A DNA stretch of 64,000 bases from NCBI GenBank assembly GCA_041655695.1, contig JBBAEW010000002.1, positions 27,927 to 91,926 on the forward strand, given 5' to 3'. The position numbers were made by a program, and so were the translations under genes. The notes under the pieces are model-generated. The model saw nothing but the letters and a program-made list of their open reading frames with translations, was not told the origin of the DNA and made no database searches. Positions 10,834 to 48,052 of the stretch are shown here, piece by piece (within the stretch, counting starts at the first letter, position 1; every line of letters begins with the position of its first letter). The DNA is from Saccharofermentanales bacterium. Lineage in GTDB: Bacteria > Bacillota > Clostridia > Saccharofermentanales > DTU023.

Positions 10834-11901
10834 ATGCTCAAAAACAAGACTTTTCGAAATTACAAGGAACAGATTGAATTCATGCAGAGCCGCGGTATCC
10901 GGGTCCCCGACCAGGAAGCGGCCATTGAGGCCCTCAGCACCTTCTCCTATTACTCCCTGGTCAATCTCAACAAGCACCTCTATGGAGGCCTGGAAAAAAG
11001 AGACTTCGAGGGCAGCCCCTCCATCCTGGACCTCCAGCTGGCCCACATGCTTAACATGAATTTCTACCACATCCTGCTCAAGGGCATCCTCTATGTCGAG
11101 GCCGCCTTCAAGACCAAGCTGGCCTATCTGATTTCTCGCGAATTTGGAACCGAAGCCCACGATGATCTGGACCGGAAGGGCAACAACTATTTCCACCAGG
11201 CTTATTACGATGCCGCCAACCCCTCTGTCCCGGGGACCTTGCGGACTCTTCGGAACAAACTCCGCTTCCTTCTCTCCGATACCAAGGCCAATTCCTACTC
11301 CCACAAATTCCTGGCAGGCAACCGCCAGCTGCCCCCCTGGATGTTCGTCCACGATATCGAATTCGGCCTGGCCGTCCTTTGGTACAACATCCTGCAGCAG
11401 GCCGACCGGGCGGAAGTGCGCGACCGGATGATGTGGGGGGAGACCGGCCAGCCGCCGGCCGGCCTGCAGGCCCAGGCGGCCGCGGATTTCTTCGAGGCGG
11501 CCCTGAAGATCCTGCGCGAATACCGCAACACCATCGCCCACGGAGAGCGTGTCTTCCCTGTTGAAATGACAGCGGTTCTGCCCTGGCAGCCCCTCAAGGC
11601 CGTCCTGCCTGAGGGCATCCTGTCCCTGGAGGAGTACCAGTCGGGCTTCGGACAGAAGGACACCTTCGCCTGCCTGCTGGCCGTGGTCTATTTCATCCAC
11701 GACCCGGTTCTCATGGTCAGTTTTTTAAGGGAGATCAGGGCCCAGATCGAATTCGCCCAGCAGATCCGCCAGGCCATGGCACCGGGCGCCCTGGATATTT
11801 TCCAGATTCTGGGGATTCCCCCCTTCACCATGGAACGCCTGATCCGGCTCAGCCACCTGCGGTTCGGCTCCCTGACAGAGACCTTCCTGGACCGGACCTG
11901 A
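10834..11901 (+). CDS. Abi_2 family (AbiD/AbiF-like) abortive-infection protein, HEPN superfamily
   Basis: N-terminal YKEQIEFMQSRGI...A...L....YY.L and central PPWMFVHDIEFG are typical of Abi_2. R-x4-H motif in YRNTIAHGERV. Confidence 0.75.
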   Translation: MLKNKTFRNYKEQIEFMQSRGIRVPDQEAAIEALSTFSYYSLVNLNKHLYGGLEKRDFEGSPSILDLQLAHMLNMNFYHILLKGILYVEAAFKTKLAYLISREFGTEAHDDLDRKGNNYFHQAYYDAANPSVPGTLRTLRNKLRFLLSDTKANSYSHKFLAGNRQLPPWMFVHDIEFGLAVLWYNILQQADRAEVRDRMMWGETGQPPAGLQAQAAADFFEAALKILREYRNTIAHGERVFPVEMTAVLPWQPLKAVLPEGILSLEEYQSGFGQKDTFACLLAVVYFIHDPVLMVSFLREIRAQIEFAQQIRQAMAPGALDIFQILGIPPFTMERLIRLSHLRFGSLTETFLDRT

Positions 11902-12704: not shown

Positions 12705-13415
12705 TTACCATTGATCCATGGCCTCCCCATAGGCCCTGTAGCGGTCCCTGCCCGTGGCCGCCACCAGGCCGACAGGCCGGAGCCCTGTCTGCAGCAGTGG
12801 CTTGGCCGCCTCCTTCATGGTCGCGCCGCTGGTCAGGATATCGTCGACCAGAAGAACTGTCCGCCCCCTCAATTCGGCCGGAAGCCGGGATCCGGAGCTC
12901 AGGCGGAAGGCCCCCTCCAGATGCTCCAGGCGTTCCTTGAGCGAGGTGGTTTCCGACTGGCGCCGGGTATCGCGCCAGCGGACCAGGAGCTTGTCAAGGG
13001 AGGGGATGGAAAGCTCTTCGGACAGGCCTTCCGCCAGCAGAGCGGCCTGGTTGTATCCCCGCCTTCTGCGCCGGTTCTCGTGAAGGGGCAGGGGGATGAT
13101 GGCATCGGCTTCCAAGCCCTGGCAAAGAACGGTCCGGGCCATGAGGGGAGCCAGGGCCATAGCCCGGTCTGTCCTGCCGGCAAATTTGATGGAGACCAGG
13201 ATTTCCGTCAGGGGTTCCCGGTAGAAAAAAGTGGCAAAGAGAGGGAAGGGGCCGTCCCAGCCAACCGCCTCCCTGTCCATGCGAAAGGGCAGACGGGAGA
13301 GGCAAAGGCGGCAGACAGAGGGTGAAGGCAGGGGCGGATGAACCGCCTGGTCACAGATGGAGCAGAAGGGAACGTAGTAGGCGCGCCGGATGACCCGGCC
13401 CAGCCAGCCGCCCAC
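12705..13415 (-). CDS. comFC: ComF family protein (phosphoribosyltransferase-like, ComFC)
   Basis: N-terminal Cys pairs (CSICD...CRLC) and C-terminal PRTase loop VLLVDDILTSGAT. Lies directly downstream of recD2. Confidence 0.8.
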   Translation of the reverse strand: MGGWLGRVIRRAYYVPFCSICDQAVHPPLPSPSVCRLCLSRLPFRMDREAVGWDGPFPLFATFFYREPLTEILVSIKFAGRTDRAMALAPLMARTVLCQGLEADAIIPLPLHENRRRRRGYNQAALLAEGLSEELSIPSLDKLLVRWRDTRRQSETTSLKERLEHLEGAFRLSSGSRLPAELRGRTVLLVDDILTSGATMKEAAKPLLQTGLRPVGLVAATGRDRYRAYGEAMDQW

Positions 13416-13418: not shown

Positions 13419-15791
13419 TCATTGGCTCAGCCAGTGGCGGAGCATGCCTTGTCTTTCGTTGGCCTCATTGTTCTTGAGCATCATGGCCAGGGTCCGTTTG
13501 CGGGTCAGAAGGAAGAGCTGTTCCTTGGCCCGGGTGACACCCGTGTAAAGGAGATTGCGGGTCAAAAAGGCGGGGGCTCCCGAAGGGATGACCAGAATCT
13601 CAAAAGGGTATTCCGAGCCCTGTGACTTGTGGATGGTCACGGCATAGGCCAGATCCAGATCCTTGAGGTCCTCGCCCGCGATCACGGCCAGGCGTTCTTC
13701 CTCAAAGAGGACGGTGACACTTGACTGGCTGAGGCTGACGGATTGGACCACTCCCATCTCCCCGTTCATAACCCCGCTTCCCTTGCGGCCGCTTTCCAGG
13801 TCACTCCATTCGAGCTCATAGTTGTTGCGCGTCTGCATGACCTTGTCGCCGCTGGTAAAGCGCTGGTCGCCTCTGTCGATACCCTGGAAGGAGGGACCTC
13901 TGGCCAGGAGCTGGAGCTGGCGGTTGAGTTCGGCCACTCCGGCGGCTCCCCGGCGGACAGCCGACAGGGTCTGGGCCTTGAAAGGATTGTCCAGGCCGTA
14001 GTAGCGGGGCAGGACATCCCGGTAAAGCTTGAGGACACTGTCCTGCATGACCTGTTCGTCTTCGCAGTCTATAAAGATGAAGTCCGACTCCAGGGACTGA
14101 TCCAGGTCAAGATCCTCCCCCCGCAGAATGCGGTGGGCGTTGGTGACGATCAGCTTATGGGCCTCCTGGCGGTAGATCTCAGTCAGGCGCTTATGGGCCA
14201 CTGTCTGGGACAGGAGAATATCGCGCAGAACCTGGCCGGGGCCGATGGAGGGCAGCTGGTCGGCATCCCCGATCAGGATCAGCCGGGTCCCCGGCTTGAC
14301 CGCTGAGAGCAGGTTGGCAAAGAGGAAGAGGTCGATCATGGAGCACTCGTCCACGATCAGGGTCTGGCAATCCAGGGCTTCCGCCGTAAGCCAGAAAGAG
14401 GGATCCAGCATGGCATCATCCTGGACTTGAAGGGCCAGGAGGCGGTGCAGGGTCTGGGCCGGCAGTTTGCAGACTTCCGACAGCCTTCTGGCTGCCCGGC
14501 CGGTCGGGGCTCCCAGAAGAATGGTCTCGCCCTGTTCCTTGAGGATGCGGGTCAAGAGGCGGACCAGAGCCGTTTTTCCCGTTCCCGGCCCGCCGGTGAT
14601 GATGGAGAAGGGCTGGGTCAGGGCCATGAGCAGGGCTTCGTACTGTTCCTCTCCCGGCTGGAAGTCCTCCTGCCTGGCGACCGACTGGATCTGCCTGGCT
14701 GCCTCCTGCCAGTCCGGAGGGCCTGTCAGCTTGCTGGCGGATAATAGTGCCACCCTGCGGGCCAAGGCTTCCTCGACCACAGCCACGGAGGCCAGGGCAA
14801 TCCGATCTTCCGCACTTTCCTGCCCCGCTGCGGCTTCCTTCTTTTTGCCCTGGTCACCCGCCCCGAACTCCTGGGCCAGTTGTCGGACGGCTGTGGCCCA
14901 TTTGCCCTGGCCTCCGGCCAGCGGGGCGGAGGGGACCTTCCAGGCGCCGTAAAGGTCCCCGGCCCGGACCAGGTCTCCCTGTGAGATCAGATCCATGACC
15001 GCCTGGCGGATCTTGTCCTGGCTGACCACAAGCTGTTCGGACAGAGAGCGGATAAGGTCGGACATGGATTCAACCGTGTGCCCGTCCCTGAAGAGGGCCT
15101 GATTGAGGGCGTAGAGGACGGCTCCCCGCAAACGGGCCGGATGATCTCCCCGGATACCGACTGCCGCAGCGATGGCATCTGCCGTCAGAAAGCCGATCCC
15201 CGGCACCAGGGAAGCCAGCTCATAAGGGTTGGTCCGGATGAGGCTTTCAGCCCGGGAACCCAGTTTCTTGTGGATTTTCATGATCCGGGAGGGGCCGATA
15301 CCGTAAGGCAGAAGGAGGAGCATGAGTTCCTGGAAACCCTGATCCTCTGCCAGCTGCTCCTGGAAAGAGAGGGCCTTCTTCAGACCTACGCCCCGGATGG
15401 CAGCCACCCGCTTGGGCTGCTGCCGCAGGACCTCCAAAGTCTCATCCCCGAAGGCGGCAACCAGCTTTTTGGCAGTCGCCGGCCCGATACCCTTCAAGGC
15501 GCCTGAAGCCAGATAGCGTTCGATCCGGTCCTTGCCGTGGGGCAGGGACCGGGAGATGGTCCGGACCTGGATCTGAGGTCCGTAAGCCGGATGATCGGTC
15601 AGAAGGCCCTGGCCCTCTACATCATCGCCAGCCGCCAGATAAGGCATGATCCCGACCAGGGTCCACTCCATCTGGCCGCTTTCGACCTCAATGACGCTGT
15701 AGCCGTTTTCCTCATTCCGAAAGACAAGCCGGGTCACGACGCCGGCAAAGGAGAGAAGCTCCCCCTGGTCTTTGTGTCCCCTGTCTGCCAT
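13419..15791 (-). CDS. recD2: SF1B helicase RecD2
   Basis: Walker A GGPGTGKT, LIVDECSM, LILIGDADQLPSIGPG, AVTIHKSQGSEY. ATG at 15791 with AAGGAG upstream. The listed start at 15950 would overlap metK. Confidence 0.85.
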   Translation of the reverse strand: MADRGHKDQGELLSFAGVVTRLVFRNEENGYSVIEVESGQMEWTLVGIMPYLAAGDDVEGQGLLTDHPAYGPQIQVRTISRSLPHGKDRIERYLASGALKGIGPATAKKLVAAFGDETLEVLRQQPKRVAAIRGVGLKKALSFQEQLAEDQGFQELMLLLLPYGIGPSRIMKIHKKLGSRAESLIRTNPYELASLVPGIGFLTADAIAAAVGIRGDHPARLRGAVLYALNQALFRDGHTVESMSDLIRSLSEQLVVSQDKIRQAVMDLISQGDLVRAGDLYGAWKVPSAPLAGGQGKWATAVRQLAQEFGAGDQGKKKEAAAGQESAEDRIALASVAVVEEALARRVALLSASKLTGPPDWQEAARQIQSVARQEDFQPGEEQYEALLMALTQPFSIITGGPGTGKTALVRLLTRILKEQGETILLGAPTGRAARRLSEVCKLPAQTLHRLLALQVQDDAMLDPSFWLTAEALDCQTLIVDECSMIDLFLFANLLSAVKPGTRLILIGDADQLPSIGPGQVLRDILLSQTVAHKRLTEIYRQEAHKLIVTNAHRILRGEDLDLDQSLESDFIFIDCEDEQVMQDSVLKLYRDVLPRYYGLDNPFKAQTLSAVRRGAAGVAELNRQLQLLARGPSFQGIDRGDQRFTSGDKVMQTRNNYELEWSDLESGRKGSGVMNGEMGVVQSVSLSQSSVTVLFEEERLAVIAGEDLKDLDLAYAVTIHKSQGSEYPFEILVIPSGAPAFLTRNLLYTGVTRAKEQLFLLTRKRTLAMMLKNNEANERQGMLRHWLSQ

Positions 15792-15825
15792 CCTGCACTC
15801 CTTGCCTTGACGGGCCTGCCGGCCC

Positions 15826-17010
15826 TCAGTTTGACAGGAGTTCTTCGACCGCGTCCAGACGCTCCCAGGGCAGATCCAGCTCCGGTCTGCCGAAATGACC
15901 GTAATTGCTGACCTGGGTGTAGATGGGCCGCAGGAGGTCGAAGCGTTCAATGATGGCGTCAGGCCGGAGATCGTAGGCGCGGCGGACCAGGGCGCTCAAG
16001 GCCTCGTCCGAGTGACCTGCCCCGGTTCCGAAGGTGGTCACGGTCACCGAAACAGGCTGGGCCACGCCGATCACGTAGGCAATCTGTACTTCGCATTGAC
16101 TGCAGAGGCCGGCCGCGATCAGATTCTTGGCGATATGGCGGGCGGCATAGGAGCCGGTCCGGTCAACCTTGGTGGGGTCTTTGCCGGAAAAAGCGCCGCC
16201 GCCGTGGTGGCCGAAACCGCCGTAGGTGTCGCAGATGATCTTGCGGCCGGTCAGGCCCGTGTCCCCCTGAGGACCGCCGATTACGAAGCGGCCGGTCGGG
16301 TTGATGAGAATCTTGGTGTTGCTGTCAAAAAGGTCGCCGGCCAGGATGGGATAGATAACGGCATCCTCGATCTCGTCCCGGACCTGTTCGGGCGTAGCTT
16401 CGCCATTGTGCTGGGCCGAGATGACGACCGTATCGATGTGAACCGGCCGCTCCCCCTCGTAGCGGATGGTTACCTGGGACTTGCCGTCCGGATAGAGGGA
16501 GGGGGCATGGCCGCTCTTGCGGGCTTCGGCCAGGCGGCGGGTCAGGCGGTGAGCCAGGGTGATGGGCAGGGGCATGTACTCCGGTGTATCACTGTTGGCA
16601 AAGCCGAACATCATGCCCTGGTCCCCGGCGCCTGTGGCCAGACTGCCGCTGTCCCGGGCTTCCAGGGAGCAGTTGACACCCATGGCAATATCGGTGGACT
16701 GTTCGTCGATGGAAGTCAGGACGGCACAGGAAGAGGCGTCAAAGCCCAGAGGATTGCCCGTGTAACCGATCCGGCGCAGGGTATCGCGCGCGATCAGTGG
16801 GATGTCCGCGTAGGCGCTGGTAGTGATCTCACCCATGACCAGGACCAGGCCCGTCGTTACGACCGTCTCACAGGCGACGCGGGCACAGGGGTCATGGGCA
16901 ATCAGGGCGTCCAGGACGGCATCGGCGATTTGATCACAAACTTTATCGGGATGGCCTTCCGTCACCGATTCAGATGTGAAAAGCCACGAGTCATTGGTTG
17001 AGTTGAACAT
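15826..17010 (-). CDS. metK: S-adenosylmethionine synthase
   Basis: [43 protein letters not shown]-like motifs. ATG at 17010 with TAAGGAG upstream. Confidence 0.95.
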
Positions 17011-17055
17011 TGCGTTTCTCCTTACATTCATCTTCCCACAAGGGGAAAGAGCCAC

Positions 17056-17186
17056 TAAAAAGGCCTCCTGAGGAGGCCGACTGAACCTCATCTCTCAGAC
17101 ACTGCTGTCTGCAGGAATTAGCACCGCCGCATGACCGCGGTTGCCGGGTTTCACAGGGCCAGTCCCTCCACCTCTCAAGATAAGAA
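17056..17186 (-). promoter_or_regulatory. SAM-I (S-box) riboswitch with intrinsic terminator in the metK leader
   Basis: Minus strand reads TTCTTATCTTGAGAGGTGGAGGGACTGGCCCTGTGAAACCCGGCAACC...GGTGCTAATTCCTGCAG...GAGAGATGAG. The hairpin GGCCTCC-TCA-GGAGGCC plus TTTTT follows. Confidence 0.85.
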
Positions 17187-17204
17187 ATCTATTCAATTTT
17201 GCTT

Positions 17205-17233
17205 ACTATACCACAAGCCCCCTGTCTGGTCGA
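17205..17233 (-). promoter_or_regulatory. Candidate metK promoter (extended -10)
   Basis: Minus strand: TCGACC, 17 nt spacer, TGgTATAGT. Lies about 20 nt before the riboswitch P1. Confidence 0.4.
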
Positions 17234-17345
17234 AAGGGCGGTTAATGACCTTCCCCGGCCGGCAGACCGGATAGTCCCAAAGGCAGGTCTTGCCTATGTT
17301 GACAGAGGCGGCCCCGGCTTCCCGGCCGGCAGCCCCCCCAAAGCC

Positions 17346-18260
17346 ATGAAACCGACTCTCTTGCTGATCGACACGCACCCCCACTATGCCGCCCGCCTGG
17401 CGGCCCGCCTCAACCATCTGGCTGGCGGCGCTTACCGTGCCAGCACCCTGGCCCCCGGTGCTCCCTGGCCTGCAAGGAAAGAGGATCTGCCTCCTGACAC
17501 ATGCCTGGCTATCCTGCCGGAAGCCTGCGCTGACTGGTCCCTCTTTGCGGGAGAGCCTTTCCCCCTTCTTTTCTGGGGTCAAGCCTCTGAGGGGGAAGAC
17601 CGGGTTCCCCGCTTTTCGGGTGCCGGTGAAATCGACCGGATGGTCCGCCTGCACCTGAATCCGGTCAACCCTGCGGCCCAAGGGACTCAAGGAGAACGGA
17701 CCTGCGGCTGCCATCTTTCTTTTTCCCAGGACCGGGCCAGAGCCATCAACCGCCATGTCCTGGATCAGGCTCTGGCTTCCGGCAAACGCCTGATCTACCT
17801 GCCCGTCAAACCTCTCTACCGGCTGGAGGATTCCTTTCGCTCCAGCCCCGGAATGACTGCCGGTGACCTCCTCTGCCTGCTGGCATCCGGTCAGAGACCT
17901 CAGGCCTCCGAGGTGGGCCGCTGGCTCTACCTGCACGAACGAGGCTATTTCACCTTCCGTCTGCCGGACCGGGCAGATGACCTGGTGTCCTGTGAAATCG
18001 AAGTCTTGAGACAGCTGGTCTCCCTTACCCATGACTACGCCCGGGAGAGCACGGAAGCCACCCAGGTCTGGCTGGACACGGAAGGACTCCTCCTGGACCG
18101 CCACCTCCGCCTTGCCGCCCTCTGCGACCACCTCTACGTCGACATCCCCCAGGGAGATTCGGCTGCGGCTTACTCGGCCAGGCGCGAGCTGGGAATCCTC
18201 CTGGCAGGACTCCCTCCCTCCTGCGCCGTCCTGGAGCAGATCCTGCCCGGAGGATCCTGA
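17346..18260 (+). CDS. TadZ/CpaE-position protein: receiver-like N-terminus plus degenerate ParA/MinD-like domain
   Basis: First gene of the Tad-like operon. ATG at 17346 (MKPTLLLIDTHP...). The listed start at 17199 would run through the metK promoter. No KGGxGK[ST] Walker A is visible. Confidence 0.45.
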   Translation: MKPTLLLIDTHPHYAARLAARLNHLAGGAYRASTLAPGAPWPARKEDLPPDTCLAILPEACADWSLFAGEPFPLLFWGQASEGEDRVPRFSGAGEIDRMVRLHLNPVNPAAQGTQGERTCGCHLSFSQDRARAINRHVLDQALASGKRLIYLPVKPLYRLEDSFRSSPGMTAGDLLCLLASGQRPQASEVGRWLYLHERGYFTFRLPDRADDLVSCEIEVLRQLVSLTHDYARESTEATQVWLDTEGLLLDRHLRLAALCDHLYVDIPQGDSAAAYSARRELGILLAGLPPSCAVLEQILPGGS

Positions 18261-18262
18261 CC

Positions 18263-19525
18263 TTGCTGCCAGACTATCGGGAAAAACAGAACTGGATCCG
18301 CCGCATTGCCGGCCACCTGGACCCGGGAAGCGAACCGTCCGATGACGAACTCCGCCGGCTGATCGCCGCCGAGGTCTCGGCCCAGACCCAGGGATCCTCC
18401 CTGACCGTGGCGGAAAAAACCCGCCTGATCCGCCATCTCTTCGACGCCATGCGCGGCCTGGATATCCTGCAGCCCCTTTTCGATGAAAAGGACATCACGG
18501 AGATCATGGTTAACAAGCCGGGCCAGATCTACATTGAACGCAGGGGCCAGCTGGAGGAAACCAGCCTGGCCTTTGATTCACCCGCCCATCTGACACATGT
18601 CATCAGCCGCTTCTTCGGCCGGGCTAATAAGCTGGTCCACGAGCGCTCGCCCATCGCCGACATGCGCCTGGCGGACGGATCACGGGTTCATGCCATCCTG
18701 CCGCCTGCCGCGCCGGAGGGACCGGTCCTGTCCATCCGGCGTTTTACCGGCATCCACCCCTCCATGGAAGCCCTGGTCGGCAACGGAACCCTGCCCCAGG
18801 AGGAGGCGTCCTTTCTGGCCCAGGCTGTCCGCGCCCGCAGGAATATTTTCATCAGCGGCGGCACGGCTTCAGGCAAGACCACCTTTCTCAACGCCCTGGC
18901 TGCCTTTATTCCTCCCAATGAACGCATTGTGACGGTGGAGGACGCTGCGGAACTGGAACTGACAGGTCTTCACAATCTGGTGCGCCTGGAAGCCCGGACG
19001 GTTTCCATTGACGGGGGCGGCGGCATCAGCCTGTCTGACCTGATCCATTCCTCCCTCCGCCTCCGGCCCGACCGCGTCATCGTGGGGGAGGTCCGGGGCA
19101 TTGAAGCCTACGACATGATCCAGGCCATGCAGACAGGCCACCCCGGGTCCATGTCAACCGGTCACGGCAACAGCAGCCGGGAGATGCTCAACCGCCTGTC
19201 CCTGCTTCTGATGACCGCCTCCCAGCTTCCCTGGGAAGCCTGCCGGCGGATGGTCGCCTCATCCATTGACCTGATCGTCCATCTGGTCCGCATGCCCGAC
19301 GGCCGCCGCCTGGTGGCTGAAATCAGCCGGATCACGGGCTTCGATCAGGACCACTTCCAGCTTTCGGTCCGTTACCGCAACCCCGCCTGCCAGGCCCAAG
19401 AGGAAGATCCGCCTGACTCAGCGGTACAAGGGAGCAGCCGGGGATCCGGCTATGAGAAAGGCCCTCCAAGAGAGATCAGGCCCCGCGCCGTCAGCCGTCT
19501 GCGGCTGGACAAGGGAAAGGACTAG
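18263..19525 (+). CDS. cpaF: CpaF/TadA-family type IV filament secretion ATPase
   Basis: Walker A GGTASGKTT, TVEDAAELEL, GEVRGIEAYDMIQAMQTGHPGSMSTGHGNS. TTG start with GGAGGA 8 nt upstream. Confidence 0.9.
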   Translation: MLPDYREKQNWIRRIAGHLDPGSEPSDDELRRLIAAEVSAQTQGSSLTVAEKTRLIRHLFDAMRGLDILQPLFDEKDITEIMVNKPGQIYIERRGQLEETSLAFDSPAHLTHVISRFFGRANKLVHERSPIADMRLADGSRVHAILPPAAPEGPVLSIRRFTGIHPSMEALVGNGTLPQEEASFLAQAVRARRNIFISGGTASGKTTFLNALAAFIPPNERIVTVEDAAELELTGLHNLVRLEARTVSIDGGGGISLSDLIHSSLRLRPDRVIVGEVRGIEAYDMIQAMQTGHPGSMSTGHGNSSREMLNRLSLLLMTASQLPWEACRRMVASSIDLIVHLVRMPDGRRLVAEISRITGFDQDHFQLSVRYRNPACQAQEEDPPDSAVQGSSRGSGYEKGPPREIRPRAVSRLRLDKGKD

Positions 19526-19528
19526 ACC

Positions 19529-21088
19529 ATGCACCGCAAAAAATCCAGTTTCCAGCCCGGCAGCCGCCCCTGGTTTTCGACCATCCGATGGATTCTCCTG
19601 GCCCTGATTCCCGCCCGCTTCGCCCTCCTGTCCTTTACCGGCGAGAACACGTCCGGCTGGCCCATGACCGTCCTGGGCGCCCTCCTCCTGGGCGGAGGCC
19701 TGTCCCGGCTCTTCCATCTGCGGGAGGAGCACATGCTCCAGACCCAATACCTGCACCTTCTGGGTTATCTGTCGACCCGTCTGGCGGCCGGCGCTCCGCT
19801 GGAAGCCGCTTTCATGGAATCGGCCGGCCCCCTGGCCGAACAACTGGGCCGCCACAACAGAATCGTGCATTCACTCTCGCGGCTTCAAAACAACCTGGAA
19901 GCTCAAATGTCATTGAATGAAGCCCTCCTGGCCTTCATGCGGGAGGTGCGCCTTTCTGCCTGCCAGCGGGATTTCACTATCCTGATCATGCTGGCCCGGA
20001 CGGGGGGCCGGACCGATATCTTCATCCGCCAAAGCCACCACGACCTGACTGCACAGATCAATGCCCAGAGCCAGGTCGCCAACGAACGGCGGGGACATTC
20101 AAGCGAAGCCCTCATCCTGGCCCTGATTCCCTTTTTCATGGCCCGCTTCATCCTGGGCAAGGCTTCGACCTACAGCCAGTCCATCCCGGAAAGTCCCTGG
20201 CTGTCTGTCTTCCTGGGCATTCTCTACCTGACCGCCATGTTGGCCCTCTTTGTTCTCCTTCTGCTCCTGGCCCCCGAAAGGACAAGTCTGAAGAAGAACC
20301 GCAGGAAGAAGCGGAAGGCCATCAGGGAAAAGGTCCACCCGACCCCCGCCTCCGTCCCCTGGCTCTCCCGCTTCTATCTGGATTTTCTGCCCGGCCAGAT
20401 CGGCCTGTCTGTCTCCTCGGCCGTCCACCTTCTGGCGGCTGACCGTCAGGGGGCCTGGGCCCGCTACATGACACAGAAAAGACTGGATATAGCCCTGGGT
20501 TTCATCCCGGCCATCCTGCTGGCCGCATCCGGCAGGGTCTCCTGGTTCCTGGTTCTGCTGGTTCCCTTTCTCTTCTCCTCCCTGCGGGATCTTATGACAA
20601 CGACCAAGGCGGCGAAACTCAAGGAACAATACCGCTTCTTTTACCCTTCGGTCGTCAACTCGCTGGCCATTCTCATGGAGAGCGGCCTGACCCTGGACCG
20701 CTCCCTTCGCACCATGGCCCGTGTCAGTCTGTCCGGGCCCCATGCGGGCAACCCGGTCGCCGCTGTACTGGGTCAGGCAGCCCTGCTTCTGGAAGCCGGC
20801 TATGACAGCGTCATGGCGGCCAATCTCCTGGCAGAGAACTGCCCCCTTCCGGAGGTCCAGGCGGCCATCCGCCTCATGGCCCGCTATGAGCGGGAAGGCG
20901 CCCTGGAGATTCTGGAGCTCATCCGCATGCAGGCGGACAGGAGCCGTCAGCTCTACCGCGACGCCCTCAGGGGCAGGGCGGAACAGCGCTCTCTTCTCTT
21001 TGTCCTCCCCATGGCCATGGACCTCCTGGTCGTCATGGCCACTGTTGTGCTCCCCGCCCTGGTCAGCATGCAGCAGCTTTATCTTTAA
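19529..21088 (+). CDS. Polytopic membrane platform protein, apparent TadB-TadC (T2SS-F type) fusion
   Basis: 519 aa with two blocks of cytoplasmic helices plus TM segments. Position is directly after cpaF. Domain call is by architecture, not by search. Confidence 0.6.
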   Translation: MHRKKSSFQPGSRPWFSTIRWILLALIPARFALLSFTGENTSGWPMTVLGALLLGGGLSRLFHLREEHMLQTQYLHLLGYLSTRLAAGAPLEAAFMESAGPLAEQLGRHNRIVHSLSRLQNNLEAQMSLNEALLAFMREVRLSACQRDFTILIMLARTGGRTDIFIRQSHHDLTAQINAQSQVANERRGHSSEALILALIPFFMARFILGKASTYSQSIPESPWLSVFLGILYLTAMLALFVLLLLLAPERTSLKKNRRKKRKAIREKVHPTPASVPWLSRFYLDFLPGQIGLSVSSAVHLLAADRQGAWARYMTQKRLDIALGFIPAILLAASGRVSWFLVLLVPFLFSSLRDLMTTTKAAKLKEQYRFFYPSVVNSLAILMESGLTLDRSLRTMARVSLSGPHAGNPVAAVLGQAALLLEAGYDSVMAANLLAENCPLPEVQAAIRLMARYEREGALEILELIRMQADRSRQLYRDALRGRAEQRSLLFVLPMAMDLLVVMATVVLPALVSMQQLYL

Positions 21089-21213
21089 TAAATACTTTCC
21101 GTCGTTTCCGCAGCAGGGGTTCCCCCAAGGCACCGGGAGTACGGGCCGGCCAACCAGTCAGGCGGCCATAATGACAGGCAGTTGGAGACATACAAGTCCA
21201 AGAGGAGGAGATC

Positions 21214-21390
21214 ATGAAGAAGACACATGAACCCCGGCGGCTTTCCTGGGACGGCTTCGGAACACTGGAGGTGATCATTATCATCGCCGTCCTGATTACC
21301 ATTGCTCTCCTGTTCCGGGAGAATATCATCCACTTCGCCCGCAACCTGATCGACAAGGTCTTTACCTCGTCCGTTATCGACAGCCTTTAA
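21214..21390 (+). CDS. flp: Flp-type (type IVb) prepilin, 58 aa
   Basis: Not in the ORF track (under 60 aa). AGAGGAGGAG SD. MKKTHEPRRLSWDG|FGTLEVIIIIAVLITIALLF has Gly at -1, Glu at +5 and a hydrophobic helix. Confidence 0.6.
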   Translation: MKKTHEPRRLSWDGFGTLEVIIIIAVLITIALLFRENIIHFARNLIDKVFTSSVIDSL

Positions 21391-21405
21391 GCGGAAGAGA
21401 TCGGC

Positions 21406-22428
21406 ATGCATACCGGGGAACTTGCCGGTGTCTACCGCCTGCCGGACCTAAAGCAAGCGGCAGAGACCAGCGATTGGAACCTGGACACAGCCCTTCTGCG
21501 GCACCGGCCCGATTCTGTCCTGCCTGTCTCCTGGTTCCCCGGCCCGGATGGCTGCATCCTGGTTCATCTGGATACGGATGGCCTGACTTCCCTGGAAGAG
21601 GGGCTGGCTTCCTGGGAGAAGAGTCCCCCAAGCGGTTTCCAGCTCCTCTTGCATATCCTGGAGTCTCTGGATCAGGCAAGGGATCATCTTTTTTATGTCT
21701 GGCCTGACCAGCTTGAATGCCGGCGGATTTTCTCGGAATCCTGGTCTCCCAAAGCCAAGAGCCCGGCTAAACTTGCCTGCCTCCCTTTCCCGCCCCCTGA
21801 CTGCGGCCCACCAGTGACAAGGCCCTCCCTTATCCGGGAACTGGCCCCCGTCTTTTTCTGGGAGCCCTCCATAAGCGATCAACTGGACAGTCTTCTGGAA
21901 GAGGGTGCTTACGATGATCTTTTAGCCCAGGTCCGCCTCCTGGCAGGGTCAGGCCAGGCTGACAAGGATGACACGATCGCTATCCCACATGAGAAGGGCC
22001 CGGCCCCCTTCTTTTCCTCTTTGATTCACAGCTTGAAAAGATGCCTGAGCTGGCCCCGGGAAGACTCCATTCATGAGTCAACCCAGGAAGTCGACCTCCT
22101 GGGCAAAGGACACCCCATGGCTCAGCTGTCGGAGGGCCTGCCCGGGACTCCGGATGAAGAATACGGCCGTCACGCCTATATCCTGACCCCTGAGTTTTTC
22201 ATCGGCCGGGATATGCGGGAAGCCGATCTCTGTATCGATTCCCCCTCCATCAGCCGCCTGCACGCCCGCATCTTCATCAAGGACGGCAGCTTCTTCCTGG
22301 AAGATCTGGGATCCAGCAACGGGACGGCCGTCGACGGTGTCCGCCTCAGCCGTCACCGGCCCTGCCTCCTGCCCGCCAAATGCCGGATTGCCTTTGCGGA
22401 CATCCGCTACTACTTCCGGACAAACTGA
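21406..22428 (+). CDS. FHA-domain protein with uncharacterised N-terminal domain
   Basis: C-terminal FFIGRD...ISRLHARIF...FLEDLGSSNGTAVDG is a canonical FHA pattern (G-R, S-x-x-H, N-G). Confidence 0.8.
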   Translation: MHTGELAGVYRLPDLKQAAETSDWNLDTALLRHRPDSVLPVSWFPGPDGCILVHLDTDGLTSLEEGLASWEKSPPSGFQLLLHILESLDQARDHLFYVWPDQLECRRIFSESWSPKAKSPAKLACLPFPPPDCGPPVTRPSLIRELAPVFFWEPSISDQLDSLLEEGAYDDLLAQVRLLAGSGQADKDDTIAIPHEKGPAPFFSSLIHSLKRCLSWPREDSIHESTQEVDLLGKGHPMAQLSEGLPGTPDEEYGRHAYILTPEFFIGRDMREADLCIDSPSISRLHARIFIKDGSFFLEDLGSSNGTAVDGVRLSRHRPCLLPAKCRIAFADIRYYFRTN

Positions 22429-22437: not shown

Positions 22438-22472
22438 TAAAAAAGCACCTCCCGCCCCAGGGGGCAGGAGGC
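22438..22472 (-). terminator. Intrinsic terminator downstream of upp
   Basis: GC-rich stem CCTCCTGCCCC/GGGGCGGGAGG (one mismatch), followed on the minus strand by a T-rich tail CTTTTTTAT. Confidence 0.45.
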
Positions 22473-22507
22473 ACATCAACCTAAGATCCTCGGGCCTTCC
22501 GTGAAAA

Positions 22508-23173
22508 TTATTTGGTTCCGAAGAGGCGATCTCCGGCATCACCCAGGCCCGGCACAATATAAGCGTGCTCATTGAGGTAATCGTCCAGGCCGGCGCAGAA
22601 GATGGGGATATCCGGATGTTCGCTGTGCAGCCGCTCGATTCCCTCGGGAGCCGCGATCAGGCAGACAAACTTGATATGCTCAATATTGCGCTGCTTGAGA
22701 AAGCCGACAGAAGCCGCCGCCGAGCCGCCGGTGGCCAGCATGGGATCCAGCAGGATGACATCACGGTTGGCGATATCATCGGGCAGCTTGCAGTAGTACT
22801 CAACCGGCTCCAGGGTGTCCGGGTCACGGTAAAGTCCGATATGGCCGACCTTGGCCATGGGGATCAGATTGATCATGCCCTCAACCATACCCAGGCCCGC
22901 GCGGAGGATAGGGATCAGAGCCAGTTTCTTGCCGTCAATGATCTGGCAGTGGGCCAGCCCTACAGGTGTCTCCACATCAATAGGGCGAAGGGGCAGATCG
23001 CGTGTCACCTCATAGGCCATGAGCATGGAAACTTCGCTGACCAGCTCACGGAACTCCTTGGTACTGGTGTTCTTGTCCCGCATCAAGGCCAGTTTATGCT
23101 GAATCAGGGGATGGTCGAAGATGAAGACACCGTCATATTCTTTTTTATTTGTCACGAAAGACACTCCTTTCAT
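22508..23173 (-). CDS. upp: Uracil phosphoribosyltransferase
   Basis: [27 protein letters not shown] loop [27 protein letters not shown]. Start at 23173 (AAAGGAG upstream) is tentative and overlaps the rpiB end by 29 nt. Confidence 0.85.
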
Positions 23174-23600
23174 GTTCCGCCATCTGATCCAGGCGGGTCT
23201 GGTGGCGGCCGCCGTCAAAAGGCGTTTCCAGAAAGAGATCGACCAGGAGCTTGGCGTATGGCACAGCCAGCAGTCGTCCCCCCAGAGCCAGCATATTGGC
23301 ATCATTATGGCGCCGGGCCATCTCAACCATAAATTCGTTTGTGCACAGGGCGCAGCGAACGCCCGGATTCTTGTTGGCTACAATGGAGACACCGATTCCG
23401 GTGCCGCAGACAATGATCCCCCGCTGGCTGCTGCCGTCGACAATCCGATCGGCGGCTTTCTGACTGAATTCAATGTAACTGACCGACTCATTGGAGAATG
23501 TTCCCATGTCGTCCACTTCATGACCTTTTTCAAGCAAATAGGCTCCAATTGCCTGCTTGAGGTCATAGCCGCCATGGTCACTGGCGATAACGATCTTCAT
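23145..23600 (-). CDS. rpiB: Ribose-5-phosphate isomerase B
   Basis: [35 protein letters not shown] at 23600 with GAGGGAGG upstream. Confidence 0.9.
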
Positions 23601-23628
23601 ACAGCCCCTCCCTCTTTTCACTTGTTAC

Positions 23629-23657
23629 ATTCTAACGCAGGCGGCCAAACCTGACAA
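23629..23657 (-). promoter_or_regulatory. Candidate rpiB-upp promoter
   Basis: Minus strand: TTGTCA (23657-23652), 17 nt spacer, TAGAAT (23634-23629). Confidence 0.4.
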
Positions 23658-23786
23658 CGCAGACAGGACCCGGCCTCCCACTGACAGCCACAAAATTAGG
23701 ACCAAAGGATCCTCCCTTTTCCCCTGTTTTTTGTCATTATTCCACAGACTTTTTCCCGCCTCCGGACCTTAAGGTTTCCCACATTT

Positions 23787-23816
23787 TGTTGATAATGTTG
23801 ATAACTATGTGTATAA
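23787..23816. repeat. Tandem TGTTGATAA x2 followed by TGTGTATAA (DnaA-box-like or iteron-like cluster)
   Basis: TGTTGATAA at 23787-23795 and 23796-23804; TGTGTATAA at 23808-23816, which is TTATACACA on the other strand. Confidence 0.5.
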
Positions 23817-24177
23817 CTTACACGACAATGATTCTGTCTTTTCCCTGGTTCGAAAGGCTTACGGCTAGTCCTTTCCTTCCTTTTTTCATCTCATATTTCA
23901 AAACGGATATTTCTTACCTTCGCTTATAATGCCCTCACATCAGACATTACAAGCTATCGATATTATGCTACCTATTCAACTGTCCACCACTGGTAGACAC
24001 AAGGACAGTCATCATGACAACATATTAGGATGGACGGCCGATCAGGCTTGAAAAAGCGCCAAACAAAAACCCCCGCCTTGGAAACTTCGGGGTTTTTATC
24101 TTCCCATGCCATCAAAGCTGCAAACGCACACTGTCGTGGGGGAGGGTGCAAACTTTCCGGCGGGCACCCCCTGCAAG

Positions 24178-24666
24178 TCAAGATCGCCTGAAAATTCTTA
24201 TGCCCTCTCTCAGAACCTCATCAACCAGATCCATATTGTCGGCCGATTGCTGTAATGTGACAAGGTCTATCCGCTTGTGCAGTTTTTCGCGTAACTCTTC
24301 AATCAGGCCAAAATATTTCAAGCCTGTCAGTTCTGTTGAGACAAAAAGATCTACATCACTCGTTTCACCAGCTTCCCCGCTGGCATATGAACCGAAGAGA
24401 TAGCAGTAATCAATAGGATATTTCTCGAAAATTTCGCCGGATATGTCAATAATATCTTCAAGCTCCAGAACACCGTGATCTTCATCAAGAATACTCAGCT
24501 TTTCAAGTTGCTCCAACATGTACTTATATTTCAGCGTTTCTTCTTTGTCGGGATCGTTTTCGTATGTCACGTAGGAACGAAGCGAAATCTGCAGCAACTC
24601 TGCTGCTGCTTTCTGAGTTAGTTTACTTGCCTGTCGAGCTTGCTTTAACCTGCCTTCCATGAGCAC
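24178..24666 (-). CDS. XRE-type HTH fused to a MNT-like nucleotidyltransferase domain
   Basis: N-terminal LKQARQASKLTQKAAAELLQISLRSYVTYE is an HTH_3 pattern. C-terminal LFGSYASGEAGETSDVDLFV is the GS...DxD NTase motif. GAGGAGGAG SD. GC is lower than in the neighbours. Confidence 0.7.
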   Translation of the reverse strand: MLMEGRLKQARQASKLTQKAAAELLQISLRSYVTYENDPDKEETLKYKYMLEQLEKLSILDEDHGVLELEDIIDISGEIFEKYPIDYCYLFGSYASGEAGETSDVDLFVSTELTGLKYFGLIEELREKLHKRIDLVTLQQSADNMDLVDEVLREGIRIFRRS

Positions 24667-24715
24667 TCCTCCTCTTCAATACAATAGCGGATTTGCGCTT
24701 TTCTGACAAGGTTGT

Positions 24716-24732
24716 TGTGCAATATTTGCACA
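24716..24732. promoter_or_regulatory. Inverted repeat TGTGCAA-TAT-TTGCACA, candidate operator
   Basis: Perfect 7-bp arms, abutting the -35 (TTGTCA, 24709-24704) of a TTGTCA-17-TATTGT promoter for the HTH-NTase gene. Confidence 0.35.
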
Positions 24733-24802
24733 TCACAGAATGACAATGTGAATTATTTGCATCCTTTCGAATATCTTACAAATCTGGGATTATGTTTATC
24801 GG

Positions 24803-24845
24803 AAAAAAAAGAGACAGCCGGTATGCCAGATCCCAGCTGTCTCTT
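24803..24845 (-). terminator. Intrinsic terminator after tRNA-Phe
   Basis: Minus strand: stem AAGAGACAGC/GCTGTCTCTT followed by TTTTTTTT. Confidence 0.6.
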
Positions 24846-24849
24846 CAGT

Positions 24850-24925
<76 letters not shown>

Positions 24926-24958
24926 TTATGCGATTGCCGGCATAAAGCCGGCAATCTG

Positions 24959-25035
24959 TGGCGACGCAGAAGGGGCTCGAACCCTCGACCTCCAGCGTGA
25001 CAGGCTGGCATTCTAACCAACTGAACTACTGCGCC
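24959..25035 (-). tRNA. tRNA-Asp (anticodon GUC)
   Basis: Reverse complement GGCGCAGTAGTTCAGTTGGTTAGAATGCCAGCCTGTCACGCTGGAGGTCGAGGGTTCGAGCCCCTTCTGCGTCGCCA. Confidence 0.9.
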
Positions 25036-25060
25036 ATACTCCGCTTCAAACGGCTGTGTC

Positions 25061-25090
25061 AGTCTATCAGATGGATCAAACGCTTGTCAA
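25061..25090 (-). promoter_or_regulatory. Candidate promoter of the tRNA-Asp/tRNA-Phe unit
   Basis: Minus strand: TTGACA (25090-25085), 18 nt spacer, TAGACT (25066-25061). Confidence 0.45.
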
Positions 25091-25112
25091 CAATCGATGG
25101 AATTTGCCGGAA

Positions 25113-25427
25113 TCAGGGCACTTCAGCCTGTCTGTCCCAGTCTCCCTGCTCCGCAACTTTCAAGGTTCCAGATGGAGCTGCTGATGGATCCGGGGGGGTG
25201 TTGACCTGACGGATGGGTGTGCGGCCGAAGAGGAAGTCAATGGATACCTGGTAATAGTCAGCCAATTTTCTCAGCATGTGGAAGTCGGGTTCCCGTTCAC
25301 CCCGCTCATACTTGGAAATGGTTTGCCGGCTTACATTGAGGCGGACAGCGACCTCCTCCTGGCGGAGGTGCCTTTCCTTCCTCAGTCCCCTGAGTCGGCG
25401 GGCAAAGATTTCGAGCGGCCTGGGCAT
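25113..25427 (-). CDS. XRE family HTH transcriptional regulator
   Basis: FARRLRGLRKERHLRQEEVAVRLNVSRQTISKYERGEREPD is a canonical HTH_3 pattern. The start (ATG 25427 versus TTG 25469) is uncertain; neither has a good SD. Confidence 0.65.
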   Translation of the reverse strand: MPRPLEIFARRLRGLRKERHLRQEEVAVRLNVSRQTISKYERGEREPDFHMLRKLADYYQVSIDFLFGRTPIRQVNTPPDPSAAPSGTLKVAEQGDWDRQAEVP

Positions 25428-25498
25428 TGCAACTGGATTATGAATCTTTGCTCTTTGGCCGACAACCAAAAAGGCCCTGATGCGCCGAAATGGCGCAC

Positions 25499-25527
25499 TT
25501 TGAAGAAAGGCAACCGTGTGCTAAACT
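25499..25527 (+). promoter_or_regulatory. Candidate tRNA-Val promoter (extended -10)
   Basis: TTGAAG, 17 nt spacer, TGcTAAACT. Lies 20 nt before the tRNA. Confidence 0.4.
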
Positions 25528-25546
25528 AGCATGGCTCATGGATTAT

Positions 25547-25622
25547 GGGAGCATAGCTCAGCAGGGAGAGCACTTGCCTTACAAGCAAGGGGTCATCGGT
25601 TCGAGCCCGGTTGCTCCCACCA
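25547..25622 (+). tRNA. tRNA-Val (anticodon UAC)
   Basis: GGGAGCATAGCTCAGCAGGGAGAGCACTTGCCTTACAAGCAAGGGGTCATCGGTTCGAGCCCGGTTGCTCCCACCA. Confidence 0.9.
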
Positions 25623-25625
25623 AAA

Positions 25626-25655
25626 AACCCGCAATCTGGACTTGCGGGTTTTCTT
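25626..25655. terminator. Bidirectional terminator (tRNA-Val and the convergent SBP gene)
   Basis: Stem CCCGCAA/TTGCGGG, flanked by AAAAAA and TTTTCTT. Confidence 0.6.
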
Positions 25656-25675
25656 ATGCGGGGAATTGTCCGCTG

Positions 25676-27490
25676 CTAATCAAAGAGAGAAAGCAGAGGA
25701 TTTATCCGGACAGGGAATGGCATCAGGGACTCCAGATCCAGGTTTTGAAAGCGGGCGGGATTCCAGAGCGCAAGACTTGTATCCCCGCCGGCCAGGGGGA
25801 TGAAGACCGCTTCCCTGAGCATCCAGTCCGAGACTTCCTTCAGGCGGCCGATCCTGTCCTTGTTGTTTTGGGAAGTCAGAAGGGTGAAGAGATGCCGGTA
25901 GCCTGCGGCCCCGTCGAACTCGATGCCAAAACTGGCCCCTGGCTCGCGCTCAAAGCGGGGAATGGCTGAAAGCCTCTGGGCCAGGCCGGCAAGGGATTCG
26001 TTGAGCCCGCTTTCGGTGTAGATCAGGTCATAGTCCGCTGTCTCGTAAGCCTCTTGCCAGGCCTCCCTGGGCAGTTCCAGCAAGGCGATCTGAAAGCCCT
26101 GGTCTTCTGCCCTCCGGGCAAAGAGCAGGCAGGCCTCCCGGATGGCCTGGGAGTGATCAGGATGCTTGAGCACCAGGGGTTGGAGGGGGCTGCCCTCATG
26201 GAGGAGAAAACCGGTTCCCCGCTCCCGCGACAGACCCGACTCAGTTATCAGGCGGCTGATGGTCTCCGGCTCCCTGGCAGGCAGGGCTGTCTCGTCCGGC
26301 TCAAGCGAAGAGAGCGTCGCGGGAATAGTCAGGGCTTCCGTCCGGTCTATATCCGGATTTCCCGGCAACAGGAGTGATCCCATACCTTCAGGGTTGGATG
26401 CCAGGCTGAGCAGCTGACGGAAAGAACGGAGCCCGGTCAGCTGACTGGCGGAAGGGTTGACACTTATGCCAGCCAGTTTCTGATGGCCGCGAAGCAGCTG
26501 GCTGGAAAGGAAGACCCCTGTATCCGTATCGGTTCCAAGATTCTGGAGCAGGGCCTCCACGGCGGCAGGGCCGGCGATCAGGTCCAGATCTCCATTGGAA
26601 AAAGCTCCCCACATGAGTTCAAGGTCCTTGTACTTGAGGAGGACCAGGTAGAGGGGCTGGCCGGGGGCCGGCCCGGCAGGGTTCGCCCATACCAGGGAGA
26701 GGGCGAATTCATCTTCATGGTAGAAAGCCCATTTTCCGCTCCCCACAAGGGGAAGCGGCCGGGCAGACAAGGCCTCCGCCGTATCAGCCGCGTAAACCAG
26801 GGGCCGCCAGACATGCTCCGGTGTAATCAGCATCCCGGCCAGGGCGTCCAGAAGAAAAGAGGCCGCATGGTCCGGAGCTTGTCTGAGCACCAGGCGGAGG
26901 GTTTGTGTATCGACCGTCTCCAGATGGCTCAGCATGCGGTTGAAGATCTGACCGGTCCCGGTCCCCAGTTTCTGGTGGGCTTCAATGGTGAAGCTGATAT
27001 CTGAAAGAGTCAGGGCCTGGCCGTCCTGCCAAAGCCTGCCTGCCGGAAGACGGATGGTCACCTGGTCCTGGTCCCAGACGACTTCCTCAGCCAGGAGCGG
27101 CTGGTAGATCATGAGGGCGGGGTCATAGAAGACCAGAGTCTGGTAGACCGGCTGGAAGAGTCCGGTCGGATCGACCGGCAGGGCAGGGACTGTATTTGCG
27201 AAGGGGTTGAGGTTGAATTGGGCAGGATCCTCCACTGCCAGAGTCAAACGTTCCTCCGGATTGCCGGGAAGCCCCCGTATGATCTGGGCCGGGTCAGCGG
27301 ACGGCCTGGTTGTCGCGGGCTCAGTCGGGCCGGCAGGATCGGTCTTGGACGTCTCCTGTGAGGGAGTCAGCCCCCGGCCGGGGCCGCAGGCAGTCAGGAA
27401 AAGAGGCAGGGCCAGGAGGATGGCCAGAAGGCGAAGACCGGCCAATCTTCTGTCCGGTCCTGTAATGGGTAGACCTCTTCCCGGCAACAT
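25676..27490 (-). CDS. Extracellular solute-binding lipoprotein (family 5, peptide/nickel type); orphan, with no adjacent permeases
   Basis: Lipobox LFLTAC. 604 aa. Size and overall pattern resemble OppA/DppA-type SBPs. Family call is moderate. Confidence 0.6.
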   Translation of the reverse strand: MLPGRGLPITGPDRRLAGLRLLAILLALPLFLTACGPGRGLTPSQETSKTDPAGPTEPATTRPSADPAQIIRGLPGNPEERLTLAVEDPAQFNLNPFANTVPALPVDPTGLFQPVYQTLVFYDPALMIYQPLLAEEVVWDQDQVTIRLPAGRLWQDGQALTLSDISFTIEAHQKLGTGTGQIFNRMLSHLETVDTQTLRLVLRQAPDHAASFLLDALAGMLITPEHVWRPLVYAADTAEALSARPLPLVGSGKWAFYHEDEFALSLVWANPAGPAPGQPLYLVLLKYKDLELMWGAFSNGDLDLIAGPAAVEALLQNLGTDTDTGVFLSSQLLRGHQKLAGISVNPSASQLTGLRSFRQLLSLASNPEGMGSLLLPGNPDIDRTEALTIPATLSSLEPDETALPAREPETISRLITESGLSRERGTGFLLHEGSPLQPLVLKHPDHSQAIREACLLFARRAEDQGFQIALLELPREAWQEAYETADYDLIYTESGLNESLAGLAQRLSAIPRFEREPGASFGIEFDGAAGYRHLFTLLTSQNNKDRIGRLKEVSDWMLREAVFIPLAGGDTSLALWNPARFQNLDLESLMPFPVRINPLLSLFD

Positions 27491-48035: not shown

Positions 48036-48052
48036 GCCGGCGCCTTACCTGA

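Follow-up and report, generated by a model that had tools for sequence, protein, structure and literature searches.

What can be built from five genes that resemble the core of a tight adherence (Tad) pilus locus, when the accessory genes of such loci are absent around them? The question is raised by a block at positions 17346-22428 (plus strand) of a 64-kb stretch of contig JBBAEW010000002.1 from a Saccharofermentanales bacterium; this whole stretch is called the window below. A first, sequence-only reading had proposed a compact Tad/Flp-like filament locus in a monoderm background, consisting of a protein in the TadZ position, a CpaF/TadA ATPase, a single platform protein looking like a TadB-TadC fusion, a Flp-type prepilin and a terminal FHA gene. 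Our analysis agrees with all five assignments, and we consider it probable that the locus is a streamlined Tad/Flp (type IVc) pilus machine for a single-membrane Clostridial cell. The cassette is a stripped-down variant of the known Tad machine and not a new kind of system. Its five open reading frames (ORFs) are real, with the coordinates and strand first proposed; they are co-directional and separated, from 5' to 3', by gaps of 2, 3, 125 and 15 bp:

17346-18260, plus strand: TadZ-like gene, 304 amino acids (aa)
18263-19525, plus strand: CpaF/TadA-type ATPase gene, 420 aa, TTG start
19529-21088, plus strand: fused platform gene, 519 aa
21214-21390, plus strand: Flp1_like prepilin gene, 58 aa
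21406-22428, plus strand: gene for a protein with a DUF6382-like and an FHA domain, 340 aa

The layout is a fixed cassette of a large uncultured clade and not a one-off. Relatives were collected in three ways, by a word-based search, by scanning a single genome for each GTDB species and by an exhaustive HMMER search, and all three agreed. The synteny check in related Clostridia that had been suggested at the outset was run and showed the block in identical order in at least 24 species-level metagenome-assembled genomes (MAGs) of Saccharofermentanales, an order within Clostridia, and of related Clostridia. The carriers are labelled Mageeibacillus sp., Saccharofermentanales bacterium, Clostridiaceae bacterium and Eubacteriales bacterium, names that fit the monoderm background assumed earlier. 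In most carriers metK flanks the cassette on one side and upp-rpiB on the other, and distant carriers, whose platform protein is only 34% identical, still have upp downstream. The five genes also keep their order in three loci with different surroundings, the more divergent L033 and L037 and, in addition, L034. Purifying selection acts on each of the five, with ratios of nonsynonymous to synonymous substitution (dN/dS) of 0.05-0.38 against seven relatives, synonymous sites being near saturation. Selection is strongest on the pilin (0.05-0.10), followed by the ATPase and the platform (both ~0.12-0.24) and by the TadZ-like and FHA proteins (both ~0.17-0.38). Recurrence in the same order together with the low dN/dS values puts the cassette far beyond chance, and by these measures it appears to be a functional module passed on by vertical inheritance, as opposed to a relic or a recently gained island.

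The 58-aa prepilin matches the Pfam family Flp1_like (PF16982) with 38.4 bits, above the gathering score of 33.5, and an AGGAGG ribosome-binding site precedes its gene. Class III signal cleavage is predicted at SWDG↓FGTLEV, after Gly14, which would release a 44-aa mature pilin with Glu at position +5; position +6 is V/I and not Y. At least 20 loci share the motif G↓FGT(L/I)E(V/I)IIIIAVLI without variation, and a distant clade has A↓VGTLEI at the same place.

The ATPase matches T2SSE in Pfam (E 4.8e-49), and its best NCBIfam model is that of the TadA family (TIGR03819) with 275 bits, a score that does not reach the strict equivalog cut-off of 373. The models for VirB11 (225 bits), FlaI (177), ComGA (57, cut-off 300) and PilB (57) all scored lower. 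Among structures in the PDB the best match is CpaF of Caulobacter (8rkd, residues 26-364, E 5e-79, 269 bits), well ahead of archaeal GspE/FlaI (138/128 bits, E 1e-39/1e-36) and also of VirB11. The Walker A (GGTASGKTT), Walker B and His boxes are intact, identity among relatives is 63-86%, and the C-terminal tail is not conserved. Since the alignment with CpaF begins at residue 26 there is no room for an N-terminal disordered region or an FHA domain, which gives the protein the minimal "class I" architecture, class III CpaF being the form with an N-terminal FHA domain (PMC12019362). The possibility that the ATPase/platform pair belongs to another defined system, such as competence, had been named as one that would undo the proposal. 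A ComG competence pseudopilus was ruled out, as the ComGA model gave 57 bits against 275 for the TadA family and the pilin is of Flp1_like and not of ComGC type.

The platform protein has T2SSF in two stretches and about 7-8 hydrophobic or transmembrane (TM) segments, and its N- and C-terminal halves align in register with each other (hhalign E 6.6e-4). Profiles of the two halves were scored against the proteins of the TadB-position (first) and TadC-position (second) genes in three reference tad loci, from Acidimicrobiales (L029), Arthrobacter (L030) and Rhodobacter (L031). The C-half scored 43/35/8 bits on the TadC-position proteins and 21/0/4 on the TadB-position proteins, preferring TadC in all three loci. 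The N-half had a weak preference for the TadB-position proteins, so that its identity as TadB is weakly supported. The protein is thus best described, as had been suggested, as a putative one-gene TadB-TadC fusion, and its order is the bacterial one, TadB then TadC. Both T2SSF repeats of the two-gene Tad platform are present, yet in one polypeptide and not in two genes. This fused form is a family of its own, with more than 100 full-length matches of ~500-550 aa among representatives of 50%-identity clusters; a search of PDB sequences with the platform profile and a tblastn search of plasmids with the platform protein both gave no match. A peptidase domain hidden in the extra TM segments was considered and rejected, as no GxGD-type motif was seen and no Pfam match was found.

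For the 304-aa TadZ-like protein, Pfam and NCBIfam gave no match. An AlphaFold2 model (predicted local distance difference test score, pLDDT, 83.5; predicted template modelling score, pTM, 0.79; 16 homologues in the alignment) had 3FKQ as its top Foldseek match in the PDB, over the full length (E 4.9e-10, 313 columns). The entry is titled "NtrC-like two-domain protein" from Eubacterium rectale, and we take it to be the published E. rectale TadZ structure (Xu et al. 2012). The following Foldseek matches, for the C-terminal domain, were ParA, MinD, Wzc and NifH. The model thus points to an atypical receiver-like N-domain followed by a domain of ParA/MinD fold that lacks the Walker A loop, and it supports the TadZ fold expected from gene position. 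In the homologue alignment the Walker A position reads a (near-)invariant GCHLSFS and no lysine is invariant across the family; because of these two features the protein is probably a pseudo-ATPase, a nucleotide-free scaffold. Profiles of the family found nothing significant among PDB sequences or in three canonical TadZ proteins.

The protein encoded by the last gene has a canonical FHA domain (Pfam, residues 265-330, E 1.1e-18), in agreement with the terminal FHA gene proposed earlier, and the phosphothreonine (pThr)-binding residues G267, R268, S283, R284, H286 and N305 are conserved in the family. Its AlphaFold2 model (pLDDT 81.6) consists of an N-domain (1-183), a disordered linker of low confidence (184-233) and the FHA domain (239-339), which in structure searches resembles OdhI and GarA. 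Every structural match was dominated by the FHA domain, and the N-domain profile found nothing among PDB sequences. The protein has no TM segment and a grand average of hydropathy (GRAVY) of -0.28, and is predicted to be cytoplasmic. Of 25 family members, 18 match the Pfam family DUF6382 (PF19909), the best with E 3.7e-5, and the orthologue in L034 has a precomputed match to it, while the protein of the window itself does not match at E < 1; the N-domain is thus probably a divergent DUF6382, by remote assignment. That it could be a small EssB-like pseudokinase, from its "LxPDLIF...LPF" motif, is speculation. The distant homologues that share only the FHA domain lie in unrelated loci (P0096, P0101 and P0106) or at a contig end (P0095).

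Residues 223-252 of the same protein contain two invariant acidic Thr motifs ahead of the FHA core. The first, H-E-x-T-x-E-(L/V)-D, places Thr226 in the disordered linker with a hydrophobic residue at +3, and the second, A-x-L-S-E-G-L-P-G-T-P-E-E-E, places Thr248 at the start of the modelled FHA domain. By analogy to GarA and OdhI they could be candidate autoinhibitory phospho-sites for intramolecular FHA binding.

On this basis we propose that the 58-aa prepilin would insert in the membrane and be cut after Gly14 by an A24 prepilin peptidase whose gene lies at another site of the genome, to leave the 44-residue pilin, starting with FGTLEV and carrying Glu5. Such cleavage in trans is implied by the conserved class III signal motif. 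A CpaF-type hexamer would dock on the fused TadB-TadC platform and its ATP-driven motion would push pilins out into a thin filament, while the TadZ-fold protein, without a nucleotide-binding loop, would be a passive scaffold or localisation factor for ATPase and platform. A secretin would be unneeded because there is no outer membrane to cross. The DUF6382-FHA protein would be a cytoplasmic adaptor that binds a phosphothreonine of a partner or of its own linker, and through it assembly would respond to a Hanks-type Ser/Thr kinase encoded elsewhere; this coupling to a kinase is most likely, because the pThr pocket is intact and the FHA gene is invariant in the operon. Attachment or aggregation is the most likely cellular role, as a default guess. 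We infer these roles, that is processing in trans, filament formation, the TadZ scaffold, phospho-regulation through FHA and adhesion, from the genes described above.

Several observations weigh against this proposal. Essentially every plausible ORF of the window was scanned against Pfam, and tblastn queries were taken from reference loci (two A24 peptidases, three TadE proteins, one TadG, one CpaB); none of these queries found a match in the window or in 28 related loci. By Pfam and tblastn the window thus lacks an A24 prepilin peptidase, and neither its extensions nor the surroundings of the cassette in relatives yielded one. To the left of the window ~10 kb more of the source contig were covered, where only housekeeping genes and, farthest out, a Pkinase gene were seen; to the right the extension was ~2 kb. 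The minor pilins TadE, TadF and TadG were not found in the window, in the short extensions or in the neighbourhood of the cassette in relatives, and minor pilins are needed for assembly in the Tad systems that have been studied. The window has no Ser/Thr kinase or PP2C phosphatase, and none adjoins the cassette in relatives. Precomputed Pfam annotation of the relatives' flanks (±7-10 kb where contigs allow) showed none of the accessory genes. Finally, the TadZ assignment is remote, made from modelled fold and gene position, with no sequence-level similarity to canonical TadZ.

Other absences are of a different kind. No CpaB or secretin was found in the window by Pfam, nor any of the diderm-specific Tad set (RcpA secretin, RcpB/C, TadD), whose absence is expected for a monoderm Clostridium. 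The sequence-only reading had listed the lack of a prepilin peptidase, of TadE/TadF-like pseudopilins and of a secretin in the window, and all three hold in the Pfam scan, the first two in the tblastn searches as well. Secretins have repeatedly been lost from monoderm Tad systems (PMC6668835), and for a peptidase acting in trans there is the precedent of Bdellovibrio PilD, which processes the Tad pilin Flp1 (bioRxiv 10.64898/2026.07.08.737194). A Hanks-type kinase gene (Pkinase, L041 20768-21110) lies just past clpX, ~10 kb left of the window start and ~27 kb from the cassette; distant as it is, it shows that the genome has Ser/Thr kinase signalling.

The surroundings of the cassette contain the following features:

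13419-15950, minus strand: recD2, upstream of the cassette
15826-17091, minus strand: metK, upstream and divergent from the cassette
17078-17062, minus strand: terminator-like hairpin after the metK riboswitch
17085-17186, minus strand: S-adenosylmethionine (SAM)-I riboswitch (RF00162, 81 bits) in the metK leader
17187-17345: divergent intergenic region between metK and the cassette, presumed site of the cassette promoter
22445-22474: GC-rich hairpin between the convergent FHA gene and upp, 13-bp stem with 9/13 pairs G-C
22508-23326, minus strand: upp, downstream and convergent with the FHA gene
23145-23621, minus strand: rpiB, downstream of the cassette

In 17187-17345, where a promoter for the cassette is presumed, a simple scan gave none on the plus strand, and the single sigma-70-like match (17233-17205) is on the minus strand and was therefore assigned to metK. 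A TTG at 17199 was rejected as start of the TadZ-like gene in favour of the ATG at 17346, because homologues start at the latter and the TTG lies near the SAM riboswitch and over the minus-strand promoter-like site (17205-17233). The hairpin at 22445-22474 has its T-run on the minus strand and was scored as the upp terminator; it may also end the cassette transcript on the plus strand. A ComFC-like phosphoribosyltransferase gene (12705-13415, minus strand) lies directly downstream of recD2 on the same strand, at a distance of 3 bp; the pairing is conserved in the relatives L001 and L041 and is the sole hint of DNA uptake near the cassette.

This pair of genes leads to the first alternative, that the locus encodes a Tad-type DNA-uptake (competence) pilus and not an adhesin, which would bind DNA, retract and pass the DNA to machinery of ComEC/ComF type. 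Tad-like pili have reportedly been implicated in DNA uptake in Micrococcus luteus, and the stable position of the cassette in the core genome and the highly conserved pilin suit a housekeeping function better than a mobile "colonisation island". A passage in PMC11680825 also cites Tad-like pili as implicated in DNA uptake in Liberibacter. The ComFC-like gene and recD2 are near the cassette in its main context; they are, however, on the opposite strand with metK in between, and they are absent in the contexts L033 and L037. No ComEA or ComEC gene lies nearby, and homologues of ComF and RecD2 are widespread whether or not the carrier is competent. We consider a DNA-uptake pilus improbable, though not negligible.

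A second alternative concerns the origin of the platform. TadB and TadC are inferred to have arisen by fission of a two-domain archaeal platform (Denise et al. 2019, PMC6668835), and the 519-aa protein could be this ancestral platform in retained form, which would make the cassette an early-branching Tad/Epd-like lineage. The fused form is broad and old, judging from the more than 100 representatives of 50%-identity clusters, and the pilus locus of TANB77, a group of uncultured Clostridia, has a fused platform too, with the TadC-like half first and the TadB-like half second (PMC11680825). In archaeal two-domain platforms the TadC-like domain likewise comes first (PMC6668835). The halves of our platform run in the opposite order, TadB-like then TadC-like, with the C-half placed consistently in 3/3 loci, and this order favours secondary fusion over a kept archaeal arrangement. 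The ATPase points the same way, with 269 bits for bacterial CpaF and far fewer, 138/128, for archaeal GspE/FlaI, so that the cassette differs from archaeal Epd-like and type IV pili both in its bacterial-clade ATPase and in its platform order. An ancestral platform is therefore quite improbable. The resemblance to the TANB77 locus extends to TadZ/CpaE-like and TadA proteins beside the single two-half platform. That locus differs in having CpaB, two ParA-like proteins, a platform of 693 aa, six or seven pilin-like genes and no FHA protein (PMC11680825), whereas the cassette has one pilin, a TadB-first platform and the DUF6382-FHA protein.

A third alternative is that the locus makes no pilus at all, but a short pseudopilus or a secretion/assembly device, perhaps together with a type VII-like system, in which DUF6382-FHA would be structural as proposed for TseJ/TsfJ. 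Tad genes often neighbour variants of the type VII secretion system (T7SS) in Clostridia; T7SSg/h have Tad genes beside them, TsfV contains a receiver domain resembling that of TadZ, and the predicted core of T7SSe and T7SSf includes DUF6382-FHA proteins (PMC11217815). A non-canonical filament would also agree with the lack of minor pilins in cis. Like TseJ and TsfJ of the Bacillota T7SSe/f (PMC11217815), our protein combines an N-terminal DUF6382 with a C-terminal FHA domain, is predicted to be cytoplasmic and is a fixed member of an envelope-machine operon. Unlike them it sits with Tad genes, there are no T7SS genes in the window, and its similarity to DUF6382 is weak. Moreover, neither the window nor the flanks of the gene-annotated relative loci (±7-10 kb where contigs allow) yielded an EssC/FtsK-type ATPase, WXG100 or YukD-like gene, and the cassette corresponds exactly to the core set of a Tad filament machine, which makes a secretion device very improbable. 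That the cassette is an inactive relic, as the missing peptidase and minor pilins in cis and the dead ATPase site of a TadZ-like protein without a Walker A loop might suggest, is hardly credible when five intact ORFs persist in at least 24 diverged species at dN/dS 0.05-0.38, CpaF keeps its catalytic motifs and FHA its pThr pocket, and the sequence that stands in place of the P-loop in the TadZ-like protein is itself (near-)invariant.

A Tad-type pilus machine thus remains the preferred reading, and comparison with described loci shows how far it has been reduced. Like the tad locus of Aggregatibacter actinomycetemcomitans and the cpa locus of Caulobacter crescentus, the cassette has a CpaF/TadA ATPase, T2SSF domains, a short Flp pilin with G↓xxxxE and a TadZ-fold gene directly upstream of the ATPase gene, in the order tadZ-tadA-tadB-tadC. 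Unlike them it has a fused platform, a TadZ without Walker A and without sequence similarity, no TadV, TadE/F/G, RcpA/B/C, TadD or CpaB in cis, a pilin gene that follows the platform gene instead of leading the operon, and a DUF6382-FHA gene at the end. The earlier suspicion that the layout departs from the textbook tad operon is thereby confirmed. With monoderm Tad loci such as that of E. rectale it shares the lack of a secretin, a TadZ fold (3FKQ) and a Flp1_like pilin of Bacillota type. The tad loci of E. rectale and Bifidobacterium breve reportedly have separate tadB and tadC, TadE/TadF pseudopilins and a nucleotide-binding TadZ, and in the tad2003 locus of B. breve tadV is said to lie elsewhere in the genome.

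An FHA module is genetically tied to the Tad ATPase also in class III CpaF (PMC12019362) and in the Myxococcus Kil system (PMC8460266). In those diderm systems the FHA domain is either part of the ATPase itself or distributed among numerous accessory proteins, whereas here a separate DUF6382-FHA protein accompanies a minimal class I CpaF in a monoderm. Tad systems were detected in Clostridia and Bacilli by Denise et al. 2019, with "systematic presence of two genes" for the platform (PMC6668835). Each odd feature of the cassette has a published precedent, namely the fused platform, the link between FHA and Tad, the peptidase in trans and the DUF6382-FHA protein of T7SSe/f. A literature search found no description, as a fixed cassette, of their combination: a nucleotide-free TadZ-like protein, a class I CpaF, a TadB-TadC fusion, a single Flp1_like pilin and DUF6382-FHA, without peptidase or minor pilins in cis, kept throughout an uncultured clade of about the rank of an order.

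Some other parts of the window also deserve mention. At 8980-11901 (plus strand) a Y-family DNA polymerase gene (IMS, 9240-10484) lies between two small unannotated ORFs (8980-9243 and 10481-10795), each of which overlaps it by 4 bases, and is followed by an Abi_2 abortive-infection-like gene (10834-11901, plus strand) found at the same position in the relatives L001-L003. The stretch 23650-25700 is low in GC (~51% against ~60% for the window) and contains tRNA-Phe, tRNA-Asp and tRNA-Val as well as a gene of atypical codon GC for a helix-turn-helix-fused nucleotidyltransferase (24178-24666, minus strand; Polbeta/NTP_transf_2). It may be a small integrated element or a toxin-antitoxin remnant. 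A gene cluster at 47079-60654 (minus strand) resembles an anaerobic set for purine/uric-acid degradation, presumably of the ygeW-ygeX-ygeY-ssnA-xdhD-ygfK type. It encodes a MobA-like/LysR protein, a Fer2+MoCoBD protein of xanthine-dehydrogenase type (48053-50626), amidohydrolases (50671-52074 and 52084-53406), a 1024-aa Fer4_20/Pyr_redox_2 protein, an M20 peptidase, an OTCase-like carbamoyltransferase and a PALP enzyme. Four sizeable ORFs have coding-like GC at third codon positions and no Pfam match (851-2185, plus strand; 40753-41835, 43249-44448 and 46418-46939, all minus strand); the last encodes a hydrophobic 173-aa product and adjoins a gene for an AMP-binding enzyme.

Taken together, these results allow a wider proposal, which we put forward tentatively and which, taken whole, we regard as possible but rather unlikely. 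The cassette would be a self-sufficient, unclassified Tad subtype of Saccharofermentanales and related uncultured Clostridia, in which the fused TadBC, the nucleotide-free TadZ scaffold and DUF6382-FHA replace the accessory set and pili are made without dedicated minor pilins. DUF6382-FHA would then be a pThr-dependent assembly adaptor common to Tad and T7SSe/f, two envelope machines of Bacillota that are not related to each other.

Tad pili are major organelles of adhesion and colonisation, and the mechanistic work on them has been done almost entirely on diderm Proteobacteria, with 12-14 genes. A cassette of five genes, with one platform polypeptide, one pilin and no secretin, would lend itself well, as a minimal system, to reconstitution and to structural studies of the coupling between CpaF and its platform. 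If the carrier genomes truly are without minor pilins of TadE/F type, the idea that Tad assembly needs minor pilins for priming would be called into question. In Clostridia, the obligatory DUF6382-FHA gene suggests that piliation is controlled by Ser/Thr phosphorylation, and it links Tad to the T7SSe/f components described recently. Judging by the isolate names of the MAGs, the carriers are abundant uncultured fermenters of anaerobic digesters, where attachment to particles or partner cells would matter ecologically.

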